The notes under the pieces are model-generated. The model saw nothing but the letters and a program-made list of their open reading frames with translations, ran no database searches and was not told the DNA's origin. DNA of 64,000 nucleotides, taken from NCBI GenBank assembly GCA_014905635.1, contig JABVCE010000002.1, positions 2,046,001 to 2,110,000 on the forward strand, read 5' to 3'. Each line of letters begins with the position of its first letter. Within the stretch, counting starts at the first letter, position 1. The position numbers and the translations under genes were made by a program. Of the stretch, positions 36,301 through 64,000 are shown in pieces. This stretch comes from Scenedesmus sp. PABB004 (Eukaryota).

Positions 36301-39300
36301 CCCCGGCTTCTCGGCGCAGTGCGTGAACAACGCCAGCGCAGCGACCGGCAGCTGGACGCTGAGCGGCGCGTGCGAGCGTGAGTGCGCCTGCGCCGCGGCG
36401 CGGCGGCGGCCCTCCCGCTCTAGCCCGGGCGGGCGGCCTCGGCGCTGCCATGCCGCGGCACCCTCACCGCTCGACTGCCGCTCGCCTGGCGCCTCCCGCA
36501 GTCAAGCGCTGCGCTGGCCTGCCCAGCATGACTGGCGTGACGCTTGCCAACAGCACGTGGAGCGCAAACTGCACCGCCAACGCCACGCACGGCAGCAGCT
36601 GCAGCCTCAGCTGCGGCTCGTCCGCCACCGGCGGCTACACCGCGACATGCAGCCAGACCAGCTGGCAGGTGTCCGGAGCGTGCGCACGTGAGCCTGCGGC
36701 GCGGGGGGGGGGGGGGGGGGGCGCTAGCCGGCGGGGCGGCGGGGCCTGCTGCGGCCGTTGGGCGTCGTCGCCCGCTGAACTGCTGCCGTGCTGCTGCGCC
36801 GCTCTCGCAGTCAAGCGCTGCGCGGGGCTGCCGCCGGCCAACCTCACCAACATCCAGCCCAGCGGCTGGAGCACGGCCTGCGCCAATGCCGAGCATGGCG
36901 CCGAGTGCTTCACGGGCTGCTCCACCATTGCCACGGGCGGCTACAGCTCGACGTGCTTTGAGGGCGCCTGGGTCGTGAGCCCCAACGCCACCTGCGCACG
37001 TGGGTGGCGGCCACGCAGGCTGCGCCCCCCAGCCCCGCACTGTGGCCGGCCGCGCTGGCGGCGCTGCCGTGGCTGCCGTGCCGCGAGCGGCCCGCGGCAG
37101 CCGGCTGCCAGGTCTACTCACCGCGCCGCTGCTGCCCCGACGCAGTCAAGACGTGCTTCGGCCTGCCGGCGACTACGACGCTGATGGCCACAGACTGGAC
37201 CGACACCAACTGCTCAGCCAACGTGCCGCACGGCACCCTCTGCGGCATGGCGTGCGCGCCGAGCGCGACCGGCAGCATCTCTGCCCTGTGCTCACAGGGC
37301 GCGTGGGCAGTGTCCAACACCTGCAGGCTCAAGCAGTGCCCGGGCCTGCCGCCCGCCAACCTGGCCAGCATCGACGCCGCCGGCTGGCCCGCCAGCTGCG
37401 CCAACGCGACCCACGGCGCCGCCTGCAGTGCCAACTGCTCGGCCAACGCCACGGGCGGGTACTCCGCAACCTGCTTCGAGGGCGCCTGGCGCGTGGCCAA
37501 CACCACGACCTGCGAGCGTGAGTGCACGCGCCGCGCCACGCGGGCCCGCCCGGCGCGTGTCGCGTGTTGCACGCGCTGCCGGCGGCAAGCCGCGCCCCTC
37601 TGCCGCTGGCTGACCCTGCTGTTGCTGCTCCTGCCGCTGCCGCTGCGCGTGTGCTTGCAGTGCGGCGGTGCACGGGGCTTCCCCCGAGCCAGGCGCTGGC
37701 TGACAGCGCCTGGAACGCCAGCTGCGCCGGGGCGACGCATGGCAGTACGTGCTCCCTGGCCTGCAGCTCGGCTGCGACGGGCATCTACACCGCTGCCTGC
37801 AGCGCTGGCAACTGGACTCTGACGAGCACGTGCCAGCGTGAGTGGCTGAGGCAGAGGAGCAGCCAGCGCTTGGCTGCCCCGCAGTGGGCGCAGGCCGTCG
37901 CCCACCCGCTACGCCCGCTCTCGCAGTCAAGCGCTGCACGGGGCTGCCGCCGGCCAACCTGACCCTGATCCAACCGAGCGGCTGGAACGCCAGCTGCGCC
38001 AACACCACGCACGGCAGCAGCTGCAGCGCTGGCTGCTCCTCTCTCGCCACGGGCGGCTACACCGCAACGTGCTTTGAGGGCGCCTGGATCGTGAGCCCCA
38101 ACGCCACCTGCGAGTGTGAGTGGTCGCTGCTGCTGCGGCTCATCCATGCTGCTGGCCGCGGCGTGCAGCAAGCAGCTGCTGCGACTGACGCGCTCAACCC
38201 ATGCGCGGCCGCCCGCCCTCGCAGTCAAGCGCTGTGTGGGACAGCCGACCGCCAACCTGACCAATGCTCTCGCCAGCGGCTGGAGCGCAGACTGCACCAA
38301 CGCGACACACGGCAGCAACTGCACCCTCGACTGCGCGTCATCGGCGACCGGCGGCTACACCGCGACATGCAGCCAGACCAGCTGGCAGGTGTCCGGAGCG
38401 TGCGCACGTGAGCCTGCGGCGCGGGGGGGGGGGGGGGGGGCGCTAGCCGGCGGGGCGGCGGGGTCTGGTGCGGCCGTTGGGCGTCGTCGCCCGCTGAGCT
38501 GCTGCCGTGCTGCCGCGCCACTCTCGCAGTCAAGCGCTGCGCGGGGCTGCCGCCGGCCAACCTGACCAACATCCAGCCCAGCGGCTGGAACGCGAGCTGC
38601 GCCAACGCCACGCACGGCAGCAGCTGCAGCACTGCCTGCTCCTCCGTTGCCACGGGCGGCTACAGCGCGACGTGCTTCGAGGGCGCCTGGGTCGTGAGCC
38701 CCAACGCCACCTGCGAGTGTGAGTGCCCGGCTGCTGCCGAAGCCATGCTGCTGGCCGCGGCGCGCTAGGACTGCAGCAAGCAGCTGCTGCAACTGACGCG
38801 CTCGACTGGCGGTCGCCCGCCCTCGCAGTCAAGCGCTGCGCGGGGCTGCCGACCACCACCAACCTGACCAACGCTCTCGCCGGCGGCTGGAGCGCAAACT
38901 GCACCAACGCAACGCACGGCAGCAACTGCACCCTCGACTGCGCGCAGAACTCCATCGGACTCTACACAGCGAGCTGCGTGGGGGGCACCTGGAGCGTCAC
39001 CGGCACGTGCCAGCGTGAGTTGTGGGCGCTGGCTTCGGGCGCGGCGCGAACCCGCGGCGCCGCGCGCTGGGCGCGCGCTGACCCGGCGACCGCCTGCCGC
39101 CCGCTGGCCGCCCTGCCCGCGCGCGCGCGCAGTGCGGCGCTGCGTCGGCGCGCCTACGGCCAGCCAGCCGCTCCTCACCGTGTCCAACTGGGCCGCCAAC
39201 TGCACCAACGCCACGGCGGGCAGCACCTGCAGCATCGCCTGCGCGGCCGCCAACGCGACCGGCCCCGGCTACGCTGCTTCCTGCGTCGACGGCAACTGGG

Positions 39301-43751: not shown

Positions 43752-45604
43752 ATGGACGAGCCGCAGCGCCCGCCGCCGGCGCCGCCGGTGCAGCCGCTGC
43801 TGCCCTTTGACGACCCCTGGTCGCTGCGCACGCGGCCCTGCTCGTTCGAAGTGCGGCGCCCCGGGCCAGCCGCGGCGGCAGCGACGGCGCGAGCAGCGGC
43901 GAGCCCGGCGGCCCTGCCGCGCGGAGCTCGGCGCACCGCGTGCGCGCCGCAGGACCTCGTGACTGCGGGCGAGGTGGTCTCGCTCAACCACATTCGCGAC
44001 ATGTCGGGCCAGAGAAACGTCAGCCTCGTGCGCGAGGGCACCAAGTTTGGCTGCGCGCCGGACCAGGTCGCGGGGTGAGCCGGCGCGGCGCGGCGGTCGC
44101 CGCCGCCGCCGGCTGTGCGCGGGCGCCGCGCGGCCACACAGCCGCGGCGGCGACGGCGCGCAGGTTCAAAAAGTACCTGTCGAACGTCGCCACGCTCATT
44201 GAGCAGGAGGGCGACCGCTTTGACCTGGCGTTCGAGTGGACCAGCCCGCTCAGCGGCCGCCCCGGGCGCTTCTTCCAGCTCCACGGCCTGCGCAAGGAGG
44301 CGGCCATGGTGCGGCGCGCGGCGCACTGGGCTGCCGCGCCGCGCGCGGCAGCCCCCCGCAGCCCGCCGCCGCCGACCGCCGCCGGCCGCCGCCTCGGCAG
44401 GCGACGAGCCTGTACGCCGCGCTGCTGCGCCAGCTCGCGCACCAGGGCGTGGCCGACCTGCTCGGCCTCAGCCCCGGCAGCACCGCGCTGCCGCCGGGCG
44501 GCGACGCGGCCGCGGCGGCGCTCGCGGCGGCGGTCGCGCAGCTGCGCGGCGCGGCGGGCGTGTACGAGCACCTCGCCGAGAGTGTGCTGCCGCCGCTGTT
44601 CGCCGAGCTCAAGGGCGACAGGCGCGCAGCGCCGCGCGGCGTGCACGCCGCGGCGCCGGCGTCTGGCGCGCGGGCGCGCTCGCCGCCGCCCAGCCCGCTC
44701 GCCTGCCCCGCCCGCCTACGGCCGCACGCCCACGGCCACGCACCCGCCGCGCCGCGCCCGCGCCAGGCCCGGCGAGATCATGGCGCGCCTCGCCACGGCG
44801 ATGGCGCAGCTCTGCCTCGCCGAGGCGCAGGCGCTGACCGCGTTCCGCGCCGGCGCGCGCGCCGGCAGCAGCGCGCCCGTGGTCGCGAGCCTCCACGTGG
44901 GCGCGGCGGAGCTCTACGAAAGGGGCGTGAAGACGATCCGAGATTACATCGGTGCGCGCCCGCGCCGCGCGGGCTGGCGGCGCCCCAGCCCGCGGTGGTG
45001 GCACGCAGCAGCGGCGGCCCGGCGCGCCGCCGCCGCCGCCGCCACACCCACCGCGACCGCCGCTTCGACCGCCGCGCGGCCGCGCAGGTGACTACACCAT
45101 CGCGTCGGACCGGCTGCGCCGCTACTTGGCCATTGGGGCGAGCCTCGCCACAGCGCGCGCGCACAAGGCGCGCGCAGCGCCCGCCTCGACCGCCGCGCGC
45201 GCCCGCCCGCGCGCGCGTCAGCCGGCCGGCGCCGCCGTCCGCGCGCCGAGCTCGCCGCCCGACCGCGCGCCGCGCAGGTGATGGCGGGCGAGCACCACGC
45301 GCAGCTGCAGGCCGGCGCCGCCGAGCGCGCGTGCGCCGAGGCGCAGGCGCTGCTCGCGACATGCATGTCGGCTGCCGACTGCGATGCGGCGTGGCGCGGC
45401 GTGCTGTCCGCGGAGCTGGCTGAGGTCGAGCGCATCAAGAAGCCGATCGAGAGCGATCGCCTCGTTGTGTACTGCCAGCCGCTGCCGCGCGAGGCGCCGG
45501 CGCTGCCGGCGGGCAAGGTGCTCGTGTCGCCGCTCGCCTACCAGCCCGAGCGCCTGCCCTCCACGGCGGGCGAGCTGGCGGGCGCCGCCGCCGCGCACTC
45601 GTGA
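43752..45604 (+). CDS. BRO1-like domain protein (BROX/plant endosomal-targeting type)
   Basis: FEWTSPLSG, QLRGAAGVYEHL, D|RPGE, LCLAEAQA and C-terminal VVYCQPLP...PAGK fit the BRO1 pattern. Confidence 0.75.
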
Positions 45605-46076
45605 GCCCTGCGGCGTGAGCCCTTCTGTTTATCTGCGGCAGTCAATCGTGCGTGCCACCGATCGCGAGGGCCTGACCCACCGATCAGCCCCCGCGCTGCA
45701 GCCCCCGCGCCCCTGCGTCCAGCGCCCGCGGGGGCAGGGCGGCCGCGGCCGCCGGGCCGCGGCCTCGCCCGCCGCGCCCCCGCTCGCGGCCCGCTCGCCC
45801 CGGAGGGAGAGGGACAGCCCCAAGACCCAGCCTGACGCCGCTCCGCCGCCGCGCCCGGGCCCGGGGCGCGCGGGGGCGGCCGCCGATCAATCGCAGCAGG
45901 CCCCGGCGCCCTCCCGCGCTCCCTGCGGCTCCCTGCGGGCGGGCGATCCGCCCCGGCGCCCTAGCCAACGATAGTGCGTGCGTGGGCGGCGTGGCACGCG
46001 GTCGCGTGGCGTGTGCGGCCGCCGGCGGTCGCCGGCGGCTCGCGGCGGCTGCTGCTGCTGCTGCGGCCGCGCCGCG

Positions 46077-46161
46077 GGGGCTGATGAGAAACACACACCA
46101 CAGACCTGTTCTGACAGGGTCTCAACCCATGTAGAGACTGTTCATGCACCACTCTGACCCC
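46077..46161 (+). ncRNA. C/D-box snoRNA, predicted double guide for 18S rRNA (sites equivalent to yeast Gm1428 and Gm1271)
   Basis: Terminal GGGG/CCCC stem; C box TGATGA 46082-46087. D' CTGA 46111-46114 is preceded by CACAGACCTGTT (antisense to 18S AACAGGUCUGUG). D CTGA 46154-46157 is preceded by CATGCACCACT (antisense to 18S GUGGUGCAUG). Target numbering is from recalled yeast 18S sequence plus the D+5 rule. Confidence 0.88.
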
Positions 46162-46222
46162 AGAGGCGCGCGCTGCGTGCCGTTGCGTGTGCGCGGGCGT
46201 GCGGGCGCGCTCGCGCGACAAG

Positions 46223-46302
46223 AGGCCGGTGACGACACCTTATCCCAACAGGTTCAGATCCCCCGTGATCGACAACACAACATGCACCACTATCCGAGGC
46301 CT
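46223..46302 (+). ncRNA. C/D-box snoRNA, U33/snR55-like (18S site equivalent to yeast Um1269)
   Basis: Terminal AGGCC/GGCCT stem; variant C box GTGACGA 46229-46235; variant D box CCGA 46294-46297 preceded by CATGCACCACTAT. The D+5 rule points to the U in GGUGGUGCAUG. Confidence 0.78.
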
Positions 46303-46479
46303 GCTGCCCCGTTGTTGTTGTTGCCGCGCGCGCGTGGAGGCTGCCCGCCGCAAAGCGTCGCGCGCCGGCGTCTCACCCGCCGCCCGCCGCCGCCCCGCAG
46401 GCCCACACCGGCCGCGCGCGTCGGCACGAGACGCCGCCGACGCGCCCCGCTGCCGCCGCGACTCCAGCAGAGGTGAGCG

Positions 46480-46775
46480 CAGCACGGAGGGCCACTCCGG
46501 TGGACAGATCGGCAGCCGACGCTCCCCCCGCCCCATGGCGGGGGCCCCACAAGCAGCGCGGCGGGCGCAGCAGCAACCGCGATGGAGACCCACCGGGCGA
46601 AAGTCCCCGGGAAATGAGGCAGAGAGTGCCAGCCCTAGCAGGCAGGACCCCCTCGCGCGGCTCGACCTGAGCGGCCTTGGGGCAGCTGACCGTAGCAACA
46701 GTTATGTGTGCCAGCGGGGGCCGGGGCCCCGGCCCCGCGCCCCCCGCGAACTCAACGGGGCTTACTCCCGTGCTG
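46480..46775 (+). ncRNA. RNase MRP RNA
   Basis: CR-I GAAAGTCCCC 46599-46608 and CR-V ACTCAACGGGGCTTACT 46750-46766 form the P4 pseudoknot. P8 hairpin GGCAGAGAGTGCC 46618-46630 has the MRP-type GAGAG loop. CR-IV-like ACAGTTA at 46698-46704. P3 base CCGGTGG/CCACCGG. P1 CAGCACGGAG (46480-46489) pairs with CTCCCGTGCTG (46765-46775). Confidence 0.92.
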
Positions 46776-46836
46776 ACGCCACCTGCGGGCGCCGCCGCCA
46801 CGTGCCGCCGCGCCCGCAGAGCCAGCGGCGCGACGA

Positions 46837-46899
46837 GCCAACTGACGAGTCCACTGAGCACGGACGAAACCCCGCCCCAATGCGAGCGGCGGTCTTGGC
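46837..46899 (+). ncRNA. Type I hammerhead ribozyme; predicted cleavage after GUC at 46894
   Basis: Stem I GCCAA (46837-41)/TTGGC (46895-99); core CTGACGA 46842-48; stem II GTCC/GGAC with a 9-nt loop; GAAA 46866-69; stem III ACCCCGC pairing with GCGGCGGT (one bulged C); GTC triplet 46892-94. Confidence 0.88.
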
Positions 46900-47029
46900 A
46901 AGCTCATCATCATCATCATCAGCAGCAGCAGCAGCAGGCGCAGGGGCAGCGTGTGCGTGGGCCCGCGGGCGGAGCGCCGCGCGGCGGGCTGCGCGTGGAG
47001 GTCGCAGGCCGGACGTGGACGCAGGCGTG

Positions 47030-47034
47030 TGTAA
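47030..47034 (+). terminator. Putative green-algal polyadenylation signal TGTAA for the ncRNA host transcript
   Basis: TGTAA is the known chlorophyte poly(A) signal. It lies about 135 nt downstream of the hammerhead site. Confidence 0.45.
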
Positions 47035-47068
47035 CACGTGCTTGCCCTCCGCGCGCGCTGACCCGGGG

Positions 47069-50000
47069 TCAGGGCATCTCGTCCCGCAGCGCGCGCTGGC
47101 CCGTGAGCTGCGCCACGTGCCCGCGCAGCGTGAGCTGTGGCCCCGCCGCCGGCCCGCGCGCGCCGCCGGGCGGCTGGAAGCGGGCCCGCCCGCCGCGCGC
47201 GGCGCGCCCGCCGGCGAGCCGCGCCGCCTCGGCCGCCGCCGCAGCGCGCTCCTCTGCCTCGTCGCGCTGGTTGGCCTCCAGCACGAGCGCCTTGATGGCC
47301 GATCGCTCGGCCGCCTCGCTGCGCTGCTTGGCCATCAGCCGCACCGCCATTGCCGCGTCGGCCGGCACCTGCAGCCAGCGGGAGGTGTAGCGGCGGCGGC
47401 GGCGGAGCGCGGTCGGCGAGCGGTCGACCGCGGCGCGCGGCGGGCGGCGCTGCGGCGCGGCGGGGCGGCGGCGCGCGCACGTGGATCTCGCGCGAGCGGT
47501 CGTCCTTGCCGCCGCGCCGCATCAGCAGCTTGAAGGTGATTGCGCCGCCGCCCTCGCCCTCGCCGTCCCCGCCGTACGACGGCCCGGCGGTGTGCAGCTG
47601 CAGCTGCGGCTGCTGCTGCGGCCGCAGCTGCTCCGGCGGCGCCGCAGCCGCGGCCTCGCCGCTGCTGCTCGCGGCCGCCGCCGCGGCCGGCGCGCCGGCC
47701 GCTGCCGACGGCGCCGCGGCTCGGCCCTGGCACTCCTGCGGGCGGCGGCGCGGCGGGCGGGCGGGCTGTCAGGTGGCGCCGCGGGCGCGGGGCGCCGCGC
47801 CGCCAGCCCTCGGCCGCTTGCTCCCACCGTCCCGAACCGCGGCGCGGCGCCGCGCCCGCTCCGCGCCGCGGGCGCGGCCCACCTGCAGCAGCGCCGCGTA
47901 CTCCGCCTCAAACTCGGCGTCCGCCTCGCCGCCGGCGCCGCGGTCGTACGCGTCGCCGTCGTCGTCGTCGCTGCTGCCGCCGCCGCCGCCGCCGCCGCTG
48001 CCGCCGCCACCCGAACCGCCGCCGCCGGCGCCGCCGCGGGCGGCGTCGTCAGACTCCGACTCTTCGTCGTCGTCCTCATCAATCGGCGCCAGCCCGCTCG
48101 CGCTCGCGGCCGCCTCCTTGGCCAGCAGCGCGCCCACCGCCGTCGCCGCGTCGGCGTAGCTCGCAAACCGCGGCAGCCCCGGCCGCAGCTGGTCGTACGT
48201 GTCCTGAATGGCGGCGTGGGCGGGGCGGGCGTGCACGCGCGCGTGGGCGCGCGGCGCGCCGGTCGCCGCGGCCGACCCTCCGCCCACCGCATGCGCGGCG
48301 GTCGCGCGCGCGCGCGCGCGCCCCGCGCAGCCCCGCGCCTGCAGGTCCGCGTCCACGTCGAGCGGCAGCGGCTGCTTGGCCAGCACGTACGCCTGCGCGC
48401 GCGCGTGCGCGAGCCGTCGGCGCGGGGGCGCGCGGCGCGCGGAGGACGGCCGCGCGCGGCGGGCCCGCGCCGCGCGGACGGCGCCCGCCCGCTGCCGCGC
48501 CGCACAGCCGCGGTGCCAGCCCGCCGCCGCCGCCGCACAGCCGCGGTGCCAGCCCGCTGCCGCGCGCAGCCTGCGCCCACCTGCATGAAGACCAGGAAGC
48601 GGTCCAGGCGGCGCCGCGCGGCGCCCTTGGAAAAGTACGACCCGCACGTCGCCAGCAGCGCGATCACCTGGCGCCGCGGCGGCGCGTGCGCTCGAGCGCT
48701 CGGGGCCCGAGCGGCCGCGCACAAAAGCGGCGGCGGCGCCGCGCCGCGGCGCCGCCGCCGCCGCCGTCGTGCCCTCTCGCCCGCCGCCGCCGCGCGCCGC
48801 CGCGACCGCACGCACCAGGCGCACGCGGAAAAAGTCGTCGGGCGGGTCCAGGCGGAGCGCGGCCTCCTCGCTCTCGTGGCCGTGGCCGATGAGGAGGTAC
48901 AGCACGTCAAACACGGCCCTGGAGTCCAGCAGCATGTAGTTGTAGCACTCGCCCAGCAGCCGCACCTGTGCGCCGCGCGGCGGCGGGGCACAGCGGCCGG
49001 CGCCGGGGTGGGCGGGGCGGCGGGCGGCGCCGCATGCCCCGCGGGGCGCGCGCCGCGCGCGCCGCGCGCCTGCGCGAGGCGCTGCTGGTAGTTGCCGGCG
49101 GCGGGGTGGTCCAGCCCCCAGCGCACGTCCTCGAGCGCCAGGTCGACCAGGGCGACGCCGAGGCTGTCGTGGTACTGCGCGAGCCCGCCGGCGAGCGAGG
49201 CGACGAGCCCGATGTGCGACACGCGCAGCCGCGACACCTGCGCGCGCGTCGCGGGCGGCGGCGGCGGCCTCGGCGGCGGCGGCGGGCGCGACGGCCTCGG
49301 CGGCGCGGCCGGGCGGCGGCGCGCAGGGCTTGCTCGGTCTGCACGAAGGCGTTCCGACGGCGGCGGCGGCGGCGGTGCTGCTGGCTCGCGCCTTGAGCAG
49401 GCACTTGAGCAGGTAGGGCTCCGCCTCGGCCCATGGCAGCTTGAGGAGCTTCTTGAGCACCACCACGACTGCGCCGTCGGCGAGGCGGTCAAAGACCAGG
49501 TGCCGCACGTACTCCTGCACGCACACAGCGGGCGTGGAGATGTGAGTGTGTGCGCGTGTGTGTGTGTGTGTGTGGGTGTGGGTGGGTGGGTGGAGGGGGG
49601 GGGGCTGAGTGCGCGCTGATCGCGCATCGAGCGGGCGCTGCGCGCGGCGCGCGGCGCGCGCGCCTGCATCGGCGGCCGGCGGCGGCGCTGCGTGGCCTTG
49701 TCGGGCGGGCGGCAGGCGTAGTAGGCGCTGTCGACGGCGTTGCTCTGCCGGCTGTCGAGGTTGCGCGCGTTGCGCAGCCGCATCATCACCGCCAGCAGGT
49801 TCTCCATGCGCACGCGCGACTCTGTGGCGCGGCGGGGCGGTTCGAGCCCGTGGGTCAGCGGCGTCGAGCGCGCGCGCGCGCCACCGCCGGTGGGGCCGCC
49901 CCGCGGCGCGCGGCCCGCCCGGCGGCGCACCCGGCAGGCGCAGCAGGAAGCGGCCCGCGCTCTCCACGAGCGCCGCGGCGGCGTCGACCGCGGGGCCGCT

Positions 50001-52960
50001 GAAGTCGTCCAGCAGCGCCTTGAGCCGCGCCAGCGCCGCGCTCGGGGGCGCGAGCCGGAACTTGGCGAGCTCGGCGAGGTACCTGCGGCACGGGAGCGGC
50101 AAGGCGGCGCGGGGTAAGCGCGGGCGTGAGTGTGTGAGCTTGAGTGTGGTGTGCGCGGGAGGCGGGCGGAGGTGGCGGGCGGCGCGGCCGCGGCGGCGGC
50201 GGCGCGCCGCCCGGGCGCACCGCGCGACGCGCAGGCGCGGCTCCTCGCCCGCGCGCGTGAGGTCCTTCTTGGACGCCAGCGCGTCAAACTCAGCCTCAAC
50301 CGCCGCCTGCACGCCTGCGCGGCAGCGGCCGGCCCGCACGCGTCGGCGCGCGGACCGCACCCGCGCACCCGCGGGGCAGGCGCGCGCGCGCGCAGCGCGA
50401 GAGGGCGGGGTGGGGCGGGGCGCGGCGTGCCGGTTCGTTGTGCGCCGCGCCGGCCGTGCCGCGCACCTGCGCCGACCTCTGGGTATGCCTGGCTGACCGT
50501 CGCCGCCACGCGGGCGTAGTAGGGCAGCAGCTGCAGGTTGCCGCGCGGCACGTCGACGAGCGCGCGCACGAGCTTCTTGCGCGCCCTGCCCCGGCGCGTT
50601 GGCAGGCGGGCGGGCGGTGTGGGCGCGCGGCACGCACGCACAAAGCGCACGCAGGCACACAAAGACACACGCACGCGCAGGCGCGCGCGAACACACAGGC
50701 AGGCGCACCCTTTGCTGTTGCTGTAGCAAAAGTTGACCGCCAGCTCGTCGCAGAGGTCGCGGCTGACGCTGCTCGGCAGGCGCGCCAGGATGACGTCCAC
50801 GGCGCTCGGGTGCTCCGCGACCGCCGCCGCGGCGCCGCCGTCCGGCTCCGCCGGCGCGGCGTCGCCGCCCGGGGCCGCCGCCGCCGCGCCGCCCGGGGCC
50901 GCGGCGGCCGCACCGGCGTCCGCCGCCGCGCCGCCGCCGTCGGCGGCCGGCTCGTCGCCGTCGCCCGCCGCCGCCGGCGCAGCCGCCGGCTGCGGCCGCG
51001 TCGCGTCGCGCAGCAGCACGGTCGGCACGAGGGACCACAGGTCGGGCAGCTGCTCGTAGAAGGCCCGGGTCTCGGGGTCCTCAAACACGTGCTCCGGCGC
51101 CTCGCCGCCCGCGCCGGCGCCGCCGCCGGCGCTCCCGCCGGCGCCGCCGGCGCTGCCGTCGTCCGCGCCGATGCGCGAGAACGCGTCCTCTGCCAGCTCC
51201 GGCAGCGGCTTGCGCAGCGCCTCGGCCATCACCGCGGTCGCGCGGTGCAGCAACTCGTACGCCTTGCGTGACGCCTCGTACTCCGCGGCTGCGCCCTCGG
51301 GCAGCTCGCCCCTGCGCGTGCAGGCGCGCGGTTTGCGGCTGGCGCGCCGCGGCGCGCGGCGGCCGTGCCACGCATCGCGCGCGGCGAGCGGCGGCGGTGC
51401 GCGCCGCGCGCGGCGCACTTGGTGGCGTACGCCTTGGCGTTGTCGCGGTCCAAGGTCAGCAGCGCCTGGTGCGCCTCCACGAGCGCGGCGGAGCAGGCCT
51501 CGAACGCGCGGTCGACGGCGCGGCCCAGCAGCTGCTTCTGCTCGGGCGGGAGCTGGTACCTGAGGCGGCAGCGCCCGGCGGCCGCGCGGCCGCGTGAGCG
51601 CGCGGCCGCGTGAGCGCGCGGCGCGTGAGCGCGCGGCGCGTGAGCGCGTGGGCGGGCCGTGGCCCGCACGGTGCGCCCGCAGGGCAAGACGGCAGCTGAC
51701 GGGGGCGGCGCCGCCTGCGGCGCCGGGCCCCCCGCGGCCGGCCGCACCGCTGCTTGCTCTCCTCCTCCAGCAGCGCCTGCTGCGCCTGCAGCTCCGCGAC
51801 CGCCGCCGCCAGCTCCGGCGGCAGCGACGAGACGTCCTGCGGCGGCCGGGCGCACGCCTGTCAGCGTGGGCCGCCGGCGGCGGCGCCCCGGGCTGCGCCG
51901 CGCCCGCGCGGGCGCACCTCGGCCTTTGCCAGCTCGGCCGGCAGGCCGGCGCTGCCGGGGCCCAGCCCCTCGGGCGGCGCGCCCAGCAGCAGCGGCGCGG
52001 CGGACTTGATGAAGCCACCCAGCAGCGACGCGGCGTGCAGCGAGCCGTCGCGGTCGCCGCCAAAGTCGAGGCCCGCCACCTGCGCGGCGAGGGCACCGGC
52101 GGCGGCGCGACATCAAGTCCGACCCGCCTGCCCTGGGCCGCCGCGTGCGCGCGGTCAGAGACGCCCCCGGCGCCGCGCACCAGCGCGCGGATCGCGCCCA
52201 GCAGGCCGCCGGCGTCGCTGACGATGCCGGCGGCGATCAGCTCGGGCAGCAGGCGCAGCGCGCCGCGCTGCCGCCGTGCGACGAGCCGCTCGTCCTCTGC
52301 TGCTGCTGCACGGACGGAGGCGGCGGCGCAGAGGGGAGCTTGGGCGCGGCGCGGCGGCGCGCGGGCCCGGCGCCCAGCGGCGGCCCGCCAAGCCGCCAAG
52401 CGGCGCGCACCGGCGCCGCCGCCCTTGGCGCCCAGCGCCGCCTTGGCGACCGCGGGGCCCAGGGCGCTGGCAAAATCGGGGTAGCTTCAGAGGGAGTGCG
52501 GAGGCGAGCGCGGGGCGAGCGCGGGGCGGCGGGGCGGCGCCGTCAGTTGCGGGCAGCGGGGGCAGGCACCGCGCGCGCCGCGCGCACCGCGCGTGCAGCG
52601 CCGCCGCCATGTCGAGCGCCGCCGGCACGTCCGCGGCCTTCAGCGGCGCCTCTGCTAGCGCCGCGACCGCCTCGCTCACATACTGCGGGCGCAGCACGGC
52701 AGCAGCGCGGCGCGGTCAGCCCGCGCCTCCCCCGCGCTCCATGCTGTGCGCTGCGCTGCGTGCTGCGCGCCACACCCGGCTGAGGTTGAGCTTGGCGGCC
52801 TCGGCCAGCAGCTGCGCCGCGCCGTCGGCGGAGAGGCCCCGGAGCTTGCGGATGAACGCGCCGTTCTTCTTGATGCTGCTGTCCAGCCGCCCCAGCTCGC
52901 CCTCGGCTGCGCGCGCGCGGCGCGGGCAGCGCGGGCGGCGCGGTCGGCGCGGTCGGCGCA

Positions 52961-53042
<82 letters not shown>

Positions 53043-53211
53043 GGCGGGCAGGCCGGCCCTCGCACGCACCCGGCCGCGCCGGCGAGAGGTTGGACGCCCG
53101 CGCCTCGCGCTGCGCGCGCAGCGCCGCCGTCGCCGCCGCGAGCTGCGCGGTGTGGGCGCTGATGGCCTCCACCGACACGCCCAGCGCCGCGTCGCCGCCG
53201 ACGTCCGCCAT
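47069..53211 (-). CDS. UPF2: Nonsense-mediated decay factor UPF2
   Basis: RLDSSIKKNGAFIRKL, KLNLSR|YVSEAV, VFEDPETRAFYEQLPDL, LLPYYARVAA, YLAELAKF, RLLGECYNY, LDPPDDFFRVRL, an acidic region and the C-terminal ERSAIKALVL segment. Confidence 0.95.
52962..53039. repeat. (GGC)n trinucleotide tract in UPF2 intron 1
   Basis: About 26 consecutive GGC/GCG units are visible. Confidence 0.95.
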
Positions 53212-63955: not shown

Positions 63956-64000
63956 GGGGACATAGCTCAATTGGTAGAGCGCTCGCTTTGCATGCGAGAG
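63956..64000 (+). tRNA. trnA-UGC: tRNA-Ala (anticodon UGC), truncated by the window end
   Basis: GGGGACATAGCTCAATTGGTAGAGCGCTCGCTTTGCATGCGAGAG shows the acceptor 5' strand, D-arm/A box and anticodon arm CTCGC-TTTGCAT-GCGAG. AT-rich upstream region at 63830-63890. Confidence 0.95.

Follow-up and report, generated by a model that had tools for sequence, protein, structure and literature searches.

An intron of a snoRNA-host-type transcript as the probable source of RNase MRP RNA in a Scenedesmus alga, with predicted splice signals set against the P1 helix

RNase MRP RNA in the green alga Scenedesmus sp. PABB004 is probably made from an intron of an RNA polymerase II (Pol II) transcript of the type that hosts small nucleolar RNAs (snoRNAs), as its sequence and comparison with relatives indicate. 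The RNA lies within a stretch of 64,000 nucleotides (nt) of contig JABVCE010000002.1 (positions 2,046,001 to 2,110,000; hereafter the window, in whose coordinates all positions are given), where it sits, on its own strand, between a predicted 5′ splice site, branch site and 3′ splice site. In plants and vertebrates, RNase MRP RNA is an independent gene of RNA polymerase III (Pol III). The original prediction for this region had proposed that the RNA is intron-encoded and that its terminal helix, P1, is bracketed by the splice signals, and the positions it gave agree with the sequence: GTGAGC stands at 46473–46478 with AG before it, the 5′ strand of P1 starts 7 nt after 46473, the 3′ strand ends at 46775 and adjoins A46776 of CTGAC, and a C-rich tract leads from CTGAC to a CCCGCAG whose CAG ends at 46819. 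The proposal as a whole stands on splice signals typical of the organism, the lack of a T-run terminator, a snoRNA cluster on the same strand and the recurrence of the intron-like bracket around MRP in 15 of 15 related lineages, and from these we infer splicing itself. Feature coordinates are collected in Table 1.

The locus holds a genuine RNase MRP RNA. An Rfam scan returns a single such RNA in the 64-kb window, a match of the full RF00030 covariance model (positions 1–266) to 46551–46777 on the + strand, with 53.4 bits against a gathering score of 50 (E 3.3e-12). Both strands of the P4 pseudoknot, CR-I (GAAAGTCCCC; as RNA, GAAAGUCCCC) and CR-V (AACTCAACGGGGCTTA; as RNA, AACUCAACGGGGCUUA, with the core ANGGGGCUUA), are in place, and AGUUAU occurs at 46700–46705. 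A GARAR pentaloop on P8, named as a criterion for MRP RNA in the consulted part of PMC4287351, is present as GGCA-GAGAG-UGCC. Relatives were collected by scanning metagenome contigs with a pattern of the CR-I and P8 motifs, which gave 65 motif matches at 58 loci. Both borders of the RNA could be read in 36 distinct units, which were reduced to 15 lineages of one architecture (group C; the window and 14 metagenome lineages) and seven of a second (group M). Alignment A1 holds the window and its 14 distinct relatives. All 19 relative loci submitted to Rfam gave MRP matches, with 51.5–145.9 bits, and these begin 3–6 nt past a GT, at the element GCGCAGNGCGNAGGGCCAC. CR-I is invariant in 15 of 15 lineages and P8 throughout A1, an invariance that is partly imposed because both motifs belong to the scan pattern; the GGGGCT of CR-V is likewise conserved in A1, where the definition of the 3′ end in our scripts required GGGGCT[TCA]A.

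The helices P1, P2 and P3 occur in canonical order with covariation support across the 15 lineages. P1 pairs CAGCACGG (46480–46487) with CCGTGCTG (46768–46775) and is continued at its inner end by AG (46488–46489) with CT (46765–46766), with one bulged C between; in the alignment 99.3% of its cells are paired and 5 of its 10 pairs show changes on both sides. The two P2 helices (3 and 4 of the structure count) are paired in 100% and 97.8% of cells, with double changes in L015, and the base helix of P3 in 89.2%, with double changes at three pairs. Taken jointly, P1, P2 and the P3 base comprise 28 pairs, 94.2% of 416 cells are paired, and 13 of the 28 pairs change on both sides; none of 500 shuffles matches the observed pairing, and slid controls pair at 28–50%. 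Rfam instead places P1 at 46552–46561 with 46768–46777 and the 5′ strand of P2 at 46564–46569. We reject this placement, because most relatives have gaps there and the helix of the original prediction at 46480–46495 covaries, so that its choice of P1 strands proves better than that of Rfam. CAGCGCGG (46554–46561) and CAGCACGG are both complementary to the one 3′ strand, and a near-repeat of the P1 and P2 5′ strands (CAGCGCGG..GGCGCA, 46552–46569) within a P3 insertion specific to the window has captured the Rfam alignment.

A score of only 53 bits and the large P3 insertion could be taken to mean that the window copy is decayed or spare, the working MRP gene lying elsewhere in the genome. Yet every conserved motif is intact, and the pairs of P1, P2 and the P3 base are either perfect or G-U, in keeping with the covariation of the relatives; the low score, moreover, is accounted for by the misplacement of P1 and P2, an artefact of alignment. 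We regard a spare copy as the most improbable of the explanations weighed here.

The splice signals were scored with matrices built from the 20 introns of the neighbouring UPF2 gene, mapped exactly onto the same window, and all candidates on the + strand of 45600–47100 (319 donors and 83 acceptors) were ranked. The donor at 46473 scores 7.3 bits and ranks second of 319, while the acceptor at 46819 scores 9.4 bits and ranks second of 83. The putative upstream intron, with both snoRNAs inside, is bounded by a donor at 45974 (7.3 bits, tied second to third) and an acceptor at 46400 (12.3 bits, first). All four sites fall within the score ranges of the training introns. In UPF2, introns are 81–188 nt long, acceptors are mostly GCAG/G (a slash marks the splice junction), and donors are GT in 16 cases (GTG followed by C, T or G, mostly GTGCGC) and GC in four; 4 of the 20 have an exact CTGAC 26–36 nt upstream of the AG, and others have CTCAC- or CCGAC-like elements.

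The comparison of group C lineages extends these observations beyond the window. Conservation starts precisely at the presumed exon end, and it starts with the general consensus of a 5′ splice site. Positions −12 to −3 are unconserved (the commonest base reaches at most 8 of 15), and A(−2), G(−1) and G(+1) are then each found in 15 of 15, a count that is partly circular for AG/G because the regular expression that anchored the border demanded AGG[TC]; stated without that circularity, L039 alone failed AGG[TC] among the loci with enough upstream sequence. Position +2 is T in 13 lineages and C in 2, and +5 is G in all 15. At −3, eight lineages have A, five C and two G, a mix more in keeping with the end of an exon than with an acceptor. 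On the other side of the RNA, CTGAC directly follows P1 in 14 of the 15 lineages and comes 25 nt later in L058; in four AT-richer lineages no A other than that of CTGAC is suitably spaced from the AG. The next AG lies 10–65 nt from the branch A, the interval between them has a higher share of pyrimidines than both 40-nt flanks in every lineage (means 0.77 versus 0.51 and 0.50), and the 3′ border is YAG in 13 of 15. The bracket layout is strongly non-random, far beyond chance.

Several points nonetheless weigh against an intronic origin. Besides the circularity in the border count, a GTGAG donor is found in none of the 20 UPF2 introns, and the putative MRP intron measures 347 nt, about double the maximum among them, a length to be expected if it carries a ~300-nt RNA. 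TTTT occurs 10–23 nt past the branch A in 6 of the 15 lineages, inside the pyrimidine tract, and could be a Pol III terminator. In L039 (2441–2720), the MRP RNA has no AG/GT border and is followed after ~7 nt by a SNORD33-like snoRNA; this locus, alone in departing clearly from the intron layout, resembles a simple dicistron. Finally, MRP RNA of a green alga has been studied experimentally only in Ostreococcus tauri (PMC7671301, as far as its text was available), where it is described as intergenic, uncapped and made by Pol III, with a T-stretch.

The T runs after MRP in those six lineages would suit an independent gene, whether a Pol III type 3 unit or a Pol II unit of small nuclear RNA (snRNA) type, as in land plants and vertebrates. 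Such a gene is the textbook state. Cloning without pyrophosphatase treatment, by the chemistry of ligation, argues for a 5′ monophosphate, which is a processed end. An independent gene is also how the O. tauri authors read their RNA (PMC7671301, consulted sections), and GCCCACAC at 46401–46408 loosely resembles the ACCCAYAW-type upstream elements of green algae (PMC8287931, in part), but pyrophosphatase was not used in recovering the O. tauri RNA, a 246-nt uncapped species detected by northern blot and sequencing, and in the same sections its authors allow that Pol II transcription followed by processing could just as well account for uncapped intergenic snoRNAs. The O. tauri locus is at 387693–387940 on the minus strand of chromosome 15. 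The RNA, as published, ends in ...GCGCTGAC, with the same CTGAC as the window; its CR-I (GAAAATCCCC) falls outside the scan pattern that we used. In the window, the lack of a T-run terminator asserted by the original prediction is real, with no T run of ≥4 in 45600–47100; such runs number only 13 in the whole window, whose G+C content is ~75–82% throughout. TTTT is absent from the 100 nt past the branch site in 9 of the 15 lineages, the window included. The missing TATA box, to which that prediction also pointed, is true as an absence but uninformative, because neither strand of the 64 kb contains a TATAWA. The lineages have no conserved upstream motif in common, the Rfam scan found no other snRNA genes in the window that could define a local upstream element, and an independent gene gives the conserved 5′ splice consensus directly before MRP no role. 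On balance, we consider an independent gene very unlikely.

The snoRNAs bear on a different alternative, in which an unspliced Pol II polycistron is cut by endo- and exonucleases to free MRP and the snoRNAs, after the fashion of the snoRNA clusters of plants, with the splice-like motifs left unused. Of the 19 relative loci searched, 7 have same-strand snoRNAs beside MRP, as has the window; snoZ159/U59 scores above gathering in four relative loci, and SNORD33-like matches of 34–41 bits are found in six. A polycistron would readily accommodate this clustering, the dicistron-like arrangement of L039 and a C/D-like unit, identified by eye, within the supposed upstream exon of L036, and O. tauri has both intronic and polycistronic snoRNAs (PMC7671301, same sections). 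What it leaves unexplained is that AG/GT..G(+5) starts exactly at the border, that the pyrimidine tract and YAG follow in 15 and 13 of the 15 lineages, and that the sites rank at the top with the genome's own intron matrices. By eye, L017 reads as short exons alternating with introns that bear either snoRNAs or MRP. An unspliced polycistron is therefore unlikely in our judgment, and the intronic origin of the MRP RNA remains the reading that we prefer.

The original prediction had also proposed that P1 can be extended by a pairing that covers both splice signals, and of this proposal the proximal part holds. Past the bulged A, the successive positions of the extension are paired in 15, 15, 15, 13 and 9 of the 15 lineages, and none of 2000 partner shuffles reaches the observed pairing sum. 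In the window, the extension is GCG (46477–46479) with CGC (46777–46779), and compensatory changes are seen among the lineages, for example GCG/CGC versus GACG/CGUC; 3–5 base pairs (bp) past the bulged A are thus conserved and covary. Farther out, AGGTG (46471–46475) is indeed complementary to CACCT (46780–46784), the minimum-energy fold contains this AGGUG/CACCU pairing (−191.5 kcal/mol, z −2.63, with 1 of 100 shuffles folding as well), and the entire 5′ splice site is paired in several relatives (e.g., L036, L015, L032 and L058). The distal pairing over the GU gives no clear sign of selection: at positions 4–8 it is not significant, with 486 of 2000 shuffles as good, and the distal duplex energy is −6.4 kcal/mol for cognate versus −5.7 kcal/mol for non-cognate partners, with 359 of 5000 permutations as good. 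We reject a selected pairing between the donor and the tract after the branch site, as, taken over the lineages, it cannot be told apart from the complementarity to be expected between a donor rich in purines and a tract of pyrimidines. A further hairpin, GCGGGCGC with GCGCCCGC, is predicted past the branch site and ahead of the AG.

If the MRP RNA is made from this intron, it would have no gene of its own, and its Pol II host transcript would also carry the two C/D snoRNAs one intron upstream. The spliceosome would remove 46473–46819, branching at A46776, and the lariat would be debranched after splicing. A 5′-to-3′ exonuclease would then trim the 5′ stub of 4–7 nt and the exosome the 3′ tail of ~40 nt, with trimming halted at the protein-bound P1 helix. 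Since the donor ends where P1 begins and the branch A is bulged beside P1, the lariat loop would approximate the mature RNA, whose span, with P1 placed at 46480–46489/46765–46775, runs from ~46477/80 to 46775/79, or ~300 nt. P1 would hide the branch A as well as part of the donor, so that, speculatively, splicing probably precedes the formation of P1 or the two compete; no less speculatively, the P1 extension may compete with, promote or otherwise regulate splicing.

Table 1. Features predicted in and around the MRP RNA of the window, in window coordinates (a slash marks a splice junction)
Feature	Positions	Strand	Sequence, pairing or basis
Putative upstream intron, 427 nt, both snoRNAs inside	45974..46400	+	donor ATA/GTGCGTGCG, end ...CCCCGCAG/G
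Box C/D snoRNA A	46074..46163	+	TGATGA...CTGA; GGGG/CCCC end stem; two guides
Box C/D snoRNA B, SNORD33/Z195-like	46222..46303	+	RF00133 41.2 bits versus gathering score 44, E 1.6e-05, full model
Putative exon, 72 nt	46401..46472	+	between best acceptor and second-best donor
Putative MRP-bearing intron, 347 nt	46473..46819	+	GAG/GTGAGC ... CTGAC ... CCCGCAG/AG; local matrices and lineages
RNase MRP RNA, predicted mature extent	46477..46779	+	RF00030; ends inferred; includes 3-bp P1 extension
P1, 5′ strand	46480..46489	+	pairs with 46765–46775
P2, 5′ strand	46490..46495	+	GGCCAC; pairs with GTGtGCC 46706–46712, one bulged U
P3, unusually long	46497..46596	+	base CCGGTGG 46497–46503 with CCACCGG 46590–46596
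CR-I	46599..46608	+	Rfam alignment
P8 hairpin	46618..46630	+	GGCA-GAGAG-TGCC, GARAR-type loop; Rfam alignment
CR-V	46749..46764	+	Rfam alignment
Predicted branch site, CTGAC(G)	46772..46777	+	A46776 as a bulge that separates P1 from its extension; AG 43 nt farther on
Predicted hairpin between branch site and AG	46785..46817	+	minimum-energy and centroid folds
Putative last exon	46820..47045	+	TGTAA at 47030–47034; end coordinate a guess

The signals suggest a host transcript with an exon up to 45973, the snoRNA intron, a 72-nt exon, the MRP intron and a last exon. A CTCAC stands ~24 nt before the 3′ end of the putative upstream intron. A Pfam scan of the 72-nt exon gave no match, and the upstream "exons" of 17 loci, inspected for coding continuity across the MRP intron, contain only short or implausible frames; the host transcripts look non-coding. 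TGTAA is the polyadenylation signal of green algae. It occurs four times on the + strand of the 64 kb, is absent from 45000–47030, and is found once 211 nt past the acceptor. The + strand gene upstream is BRO1-like (a weak Pfam match) with its stop at 45604, and the snoRNA-MRP host may be the 3′ untranslated region of this gene or a separate non-coding RNA.

snoRNA A carries two guides, CCACAGACCTGTTCTGA (snR56-like) and TTCATGCACCACTCTGA (SNORD33-like), and its Rfam scores for SNORD33 (26.3 bits, E 0.073) and snR56 (25.0 bits) are both under gathering; both guides recur letter for letter in the snoRNA adjoining MRP at L017:1419–1505. snoRNA B has an intact SNORD33-type guide and a D box that reads CCGA instead of CTGA, and it may have arisen as a copy of the 3′ guide of snoRNA A and be degenerating. 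UPF2 runs convergently with the MRP unit and has 21 exons at 47072–53211 on the − strand; the translation of a 200-residue exon is 100% identical to UPF2 of Scenedesmus sp. PABB004. Its four GC donors (GCGCG..) among 20 are a high share, and its usual donor is GTGCGC rather than GTGAG. No TTACA, the minus-strand form of TGTAA, occurs within 45000–47600, so UPF2 may overlap the MRP host at its own 3′ end. The window has no gene suited to be a Pol III control. A transfer RNA (tRNA)-Cys called by Aragorn at 37969–38056 (−) was discarded for this purpose, being an odd 88-nt call that lacks Rfam support at gathering score. A real tRNA starts at 63956 (+) and is cut by the window end at 64000; the 80 nt before it are unusually AT-rich.

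Group M (L003, L005, L014, L024, L038, L042 and L054) shows a second architecture. Here P1 (GTGGGGCACCGCC with GGCGGTGCCCCAC) includes the GT and is followed after just 5–13 nt by the AG, CTGAC is absent, both borders read CAG/GT in 7 of 7 lineages, and several upstream flanks resemble acceptor regions. These features suggest back-to-back introns with zero-length exons, that is, recursive splicing, or an MRP RNA that is bounded differently. Nested and recursive splicing is described for snoRNA clusters of Candida (PMC5033589, in part). At L017:783–800, an acceptor-like ...GTCGTCGCAG is followed at once by GTATGT, and two introns with snoRNAs may be separated there by a zero-length exon. The contigs L025 (2356–3846), L038, L043 and L056 each carry three MRP units in tandem, at a spacing of ~460–580 nt; the spacers of L038 begin with GTGCTG and end in a pyrimidine tract and CAG, and are intron-like themselves.

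A ribosomal protein S3a gene stands tail-to-tail with the snoRNA-MRP cluster in both L017 (1657–2469, −) and L047 (855–1595, +), two lineages that differ greatly in G+C content (57% and 42%), which suggests that this neighbourhood is conserved synteny. The S3a gene beside L017 is nearest to that of Picochlorum (93%), and we therefore take the layout to be common to Chlorophyceae and a trebouxiophyte-like line; Mamiellales as the source of the lower-GC loci is rejected on the same ground. L019 (1–520), in which the 5′ half of an MRP RNA continues into unrelated sequence of bacterial appearance, is likely an assembly chimera, and the start of L002 (1–105), which resembles sequencing adaptor, runs directly into the 5′ strand of P1.

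The arrangement proposed here resembles that of snoRNA host genes, in which each intron carries one small RNA or a small cluster, the exons are short and code poorly, and the RNAs are freed by splicing, debranching and exonuclease trimming, a route for intronic snoRNAs whose classical account is reportedly that of Kiss and Filipowicz in 1995. It differs in its cargo, a ribozyme RNA of ~300 nt whose own terminal helix carries the predicted branch A. snoRNAs usually lie tens of nucleotides from both splice signals. A second likeness is to the RNase P RNA of insects and crustaceans, which is intronic, in Pol II host genes and without Pol III signals (PMC4287351, consulted part); there too an RNA of the P/MRP class sits in an intron, but it is RNase P RNA rather than MRP RNA. 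Maturation of the Drosophila RNA from its intron proceeds through debranching enzyme, Rat1/Xrn2 and the exosome, while Pop1 and Rpp20/25 shield it (PMC6797745, excerpted). The D. virilis intron measures 701 nt for a 353-nt RNA and leaves long flanks, whereas here the flanks are 4–7 nt and ~40 nt and the signals touch P1. For MRP RNA itself, the same part of PMC4287351 reports Pol III signals in all 26 insects surveyed and Pol III transcription in all animals examined, and this animal work set MRP RNA apart from insect RNase P RNA as one that never entered an intron. In the red alga Cyanidioschyzon merolae, MRP RNA is listed among stable intron-encoded RNAs together with 11 box C/D snoRNAs (bioRxiv 10.1101/2025.12.01.691491); in the accessible portion of this preprint, it is a mention only ("will be discussed separately") with nothing on splice signals relative to P1, and our comparison with this different phylum is by description rather than by sequence. 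A full-text literature search, whose scope left out Piccinelli et al. 2005 and the PMC8287931 supplement, found no description of an intronic green-algal MRP RNA or of splice signals fused to P1. The insect RNase P RNA and the single C. merolae mention are thus the precedents for an intron-born RNA of this class.

A wider reading can be framed, although we consider it unlikely: that the MRP RNA of core green algae, at least in Chlorophyceae and the Picochlorum-like line, is always born as its own lariat, with P1 bringing the donor and the bulged branch A together in a way that recalls a built-in "zipper" stem or group II intron domain VI. Splicing would then be gated by folding of the RNA or by its loading with protein, or a tail-trimmed lariat would be a stable form, and group M may splice recursively. 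Were the intronic origin that we prefer to hold, a whole branch of green algae would make an essential ribozyme of ribosomal RNA processing from an intron of snoRNA-host type, the supply of MRP would be tied to Pol II transcription and splicing, and the Pol III assignment in Ostreococcus would deserve a second look. Annotation pipelines that demand Pol III signals would miss or mislabel such genes, and Rfam misplaces P1 and P2 of the RNA in the window. The near-identity of lariat and mature RNA would also offer a compact natural system in which RNA folding and ribonucleoprotein assembly are set against the use of splice sites.

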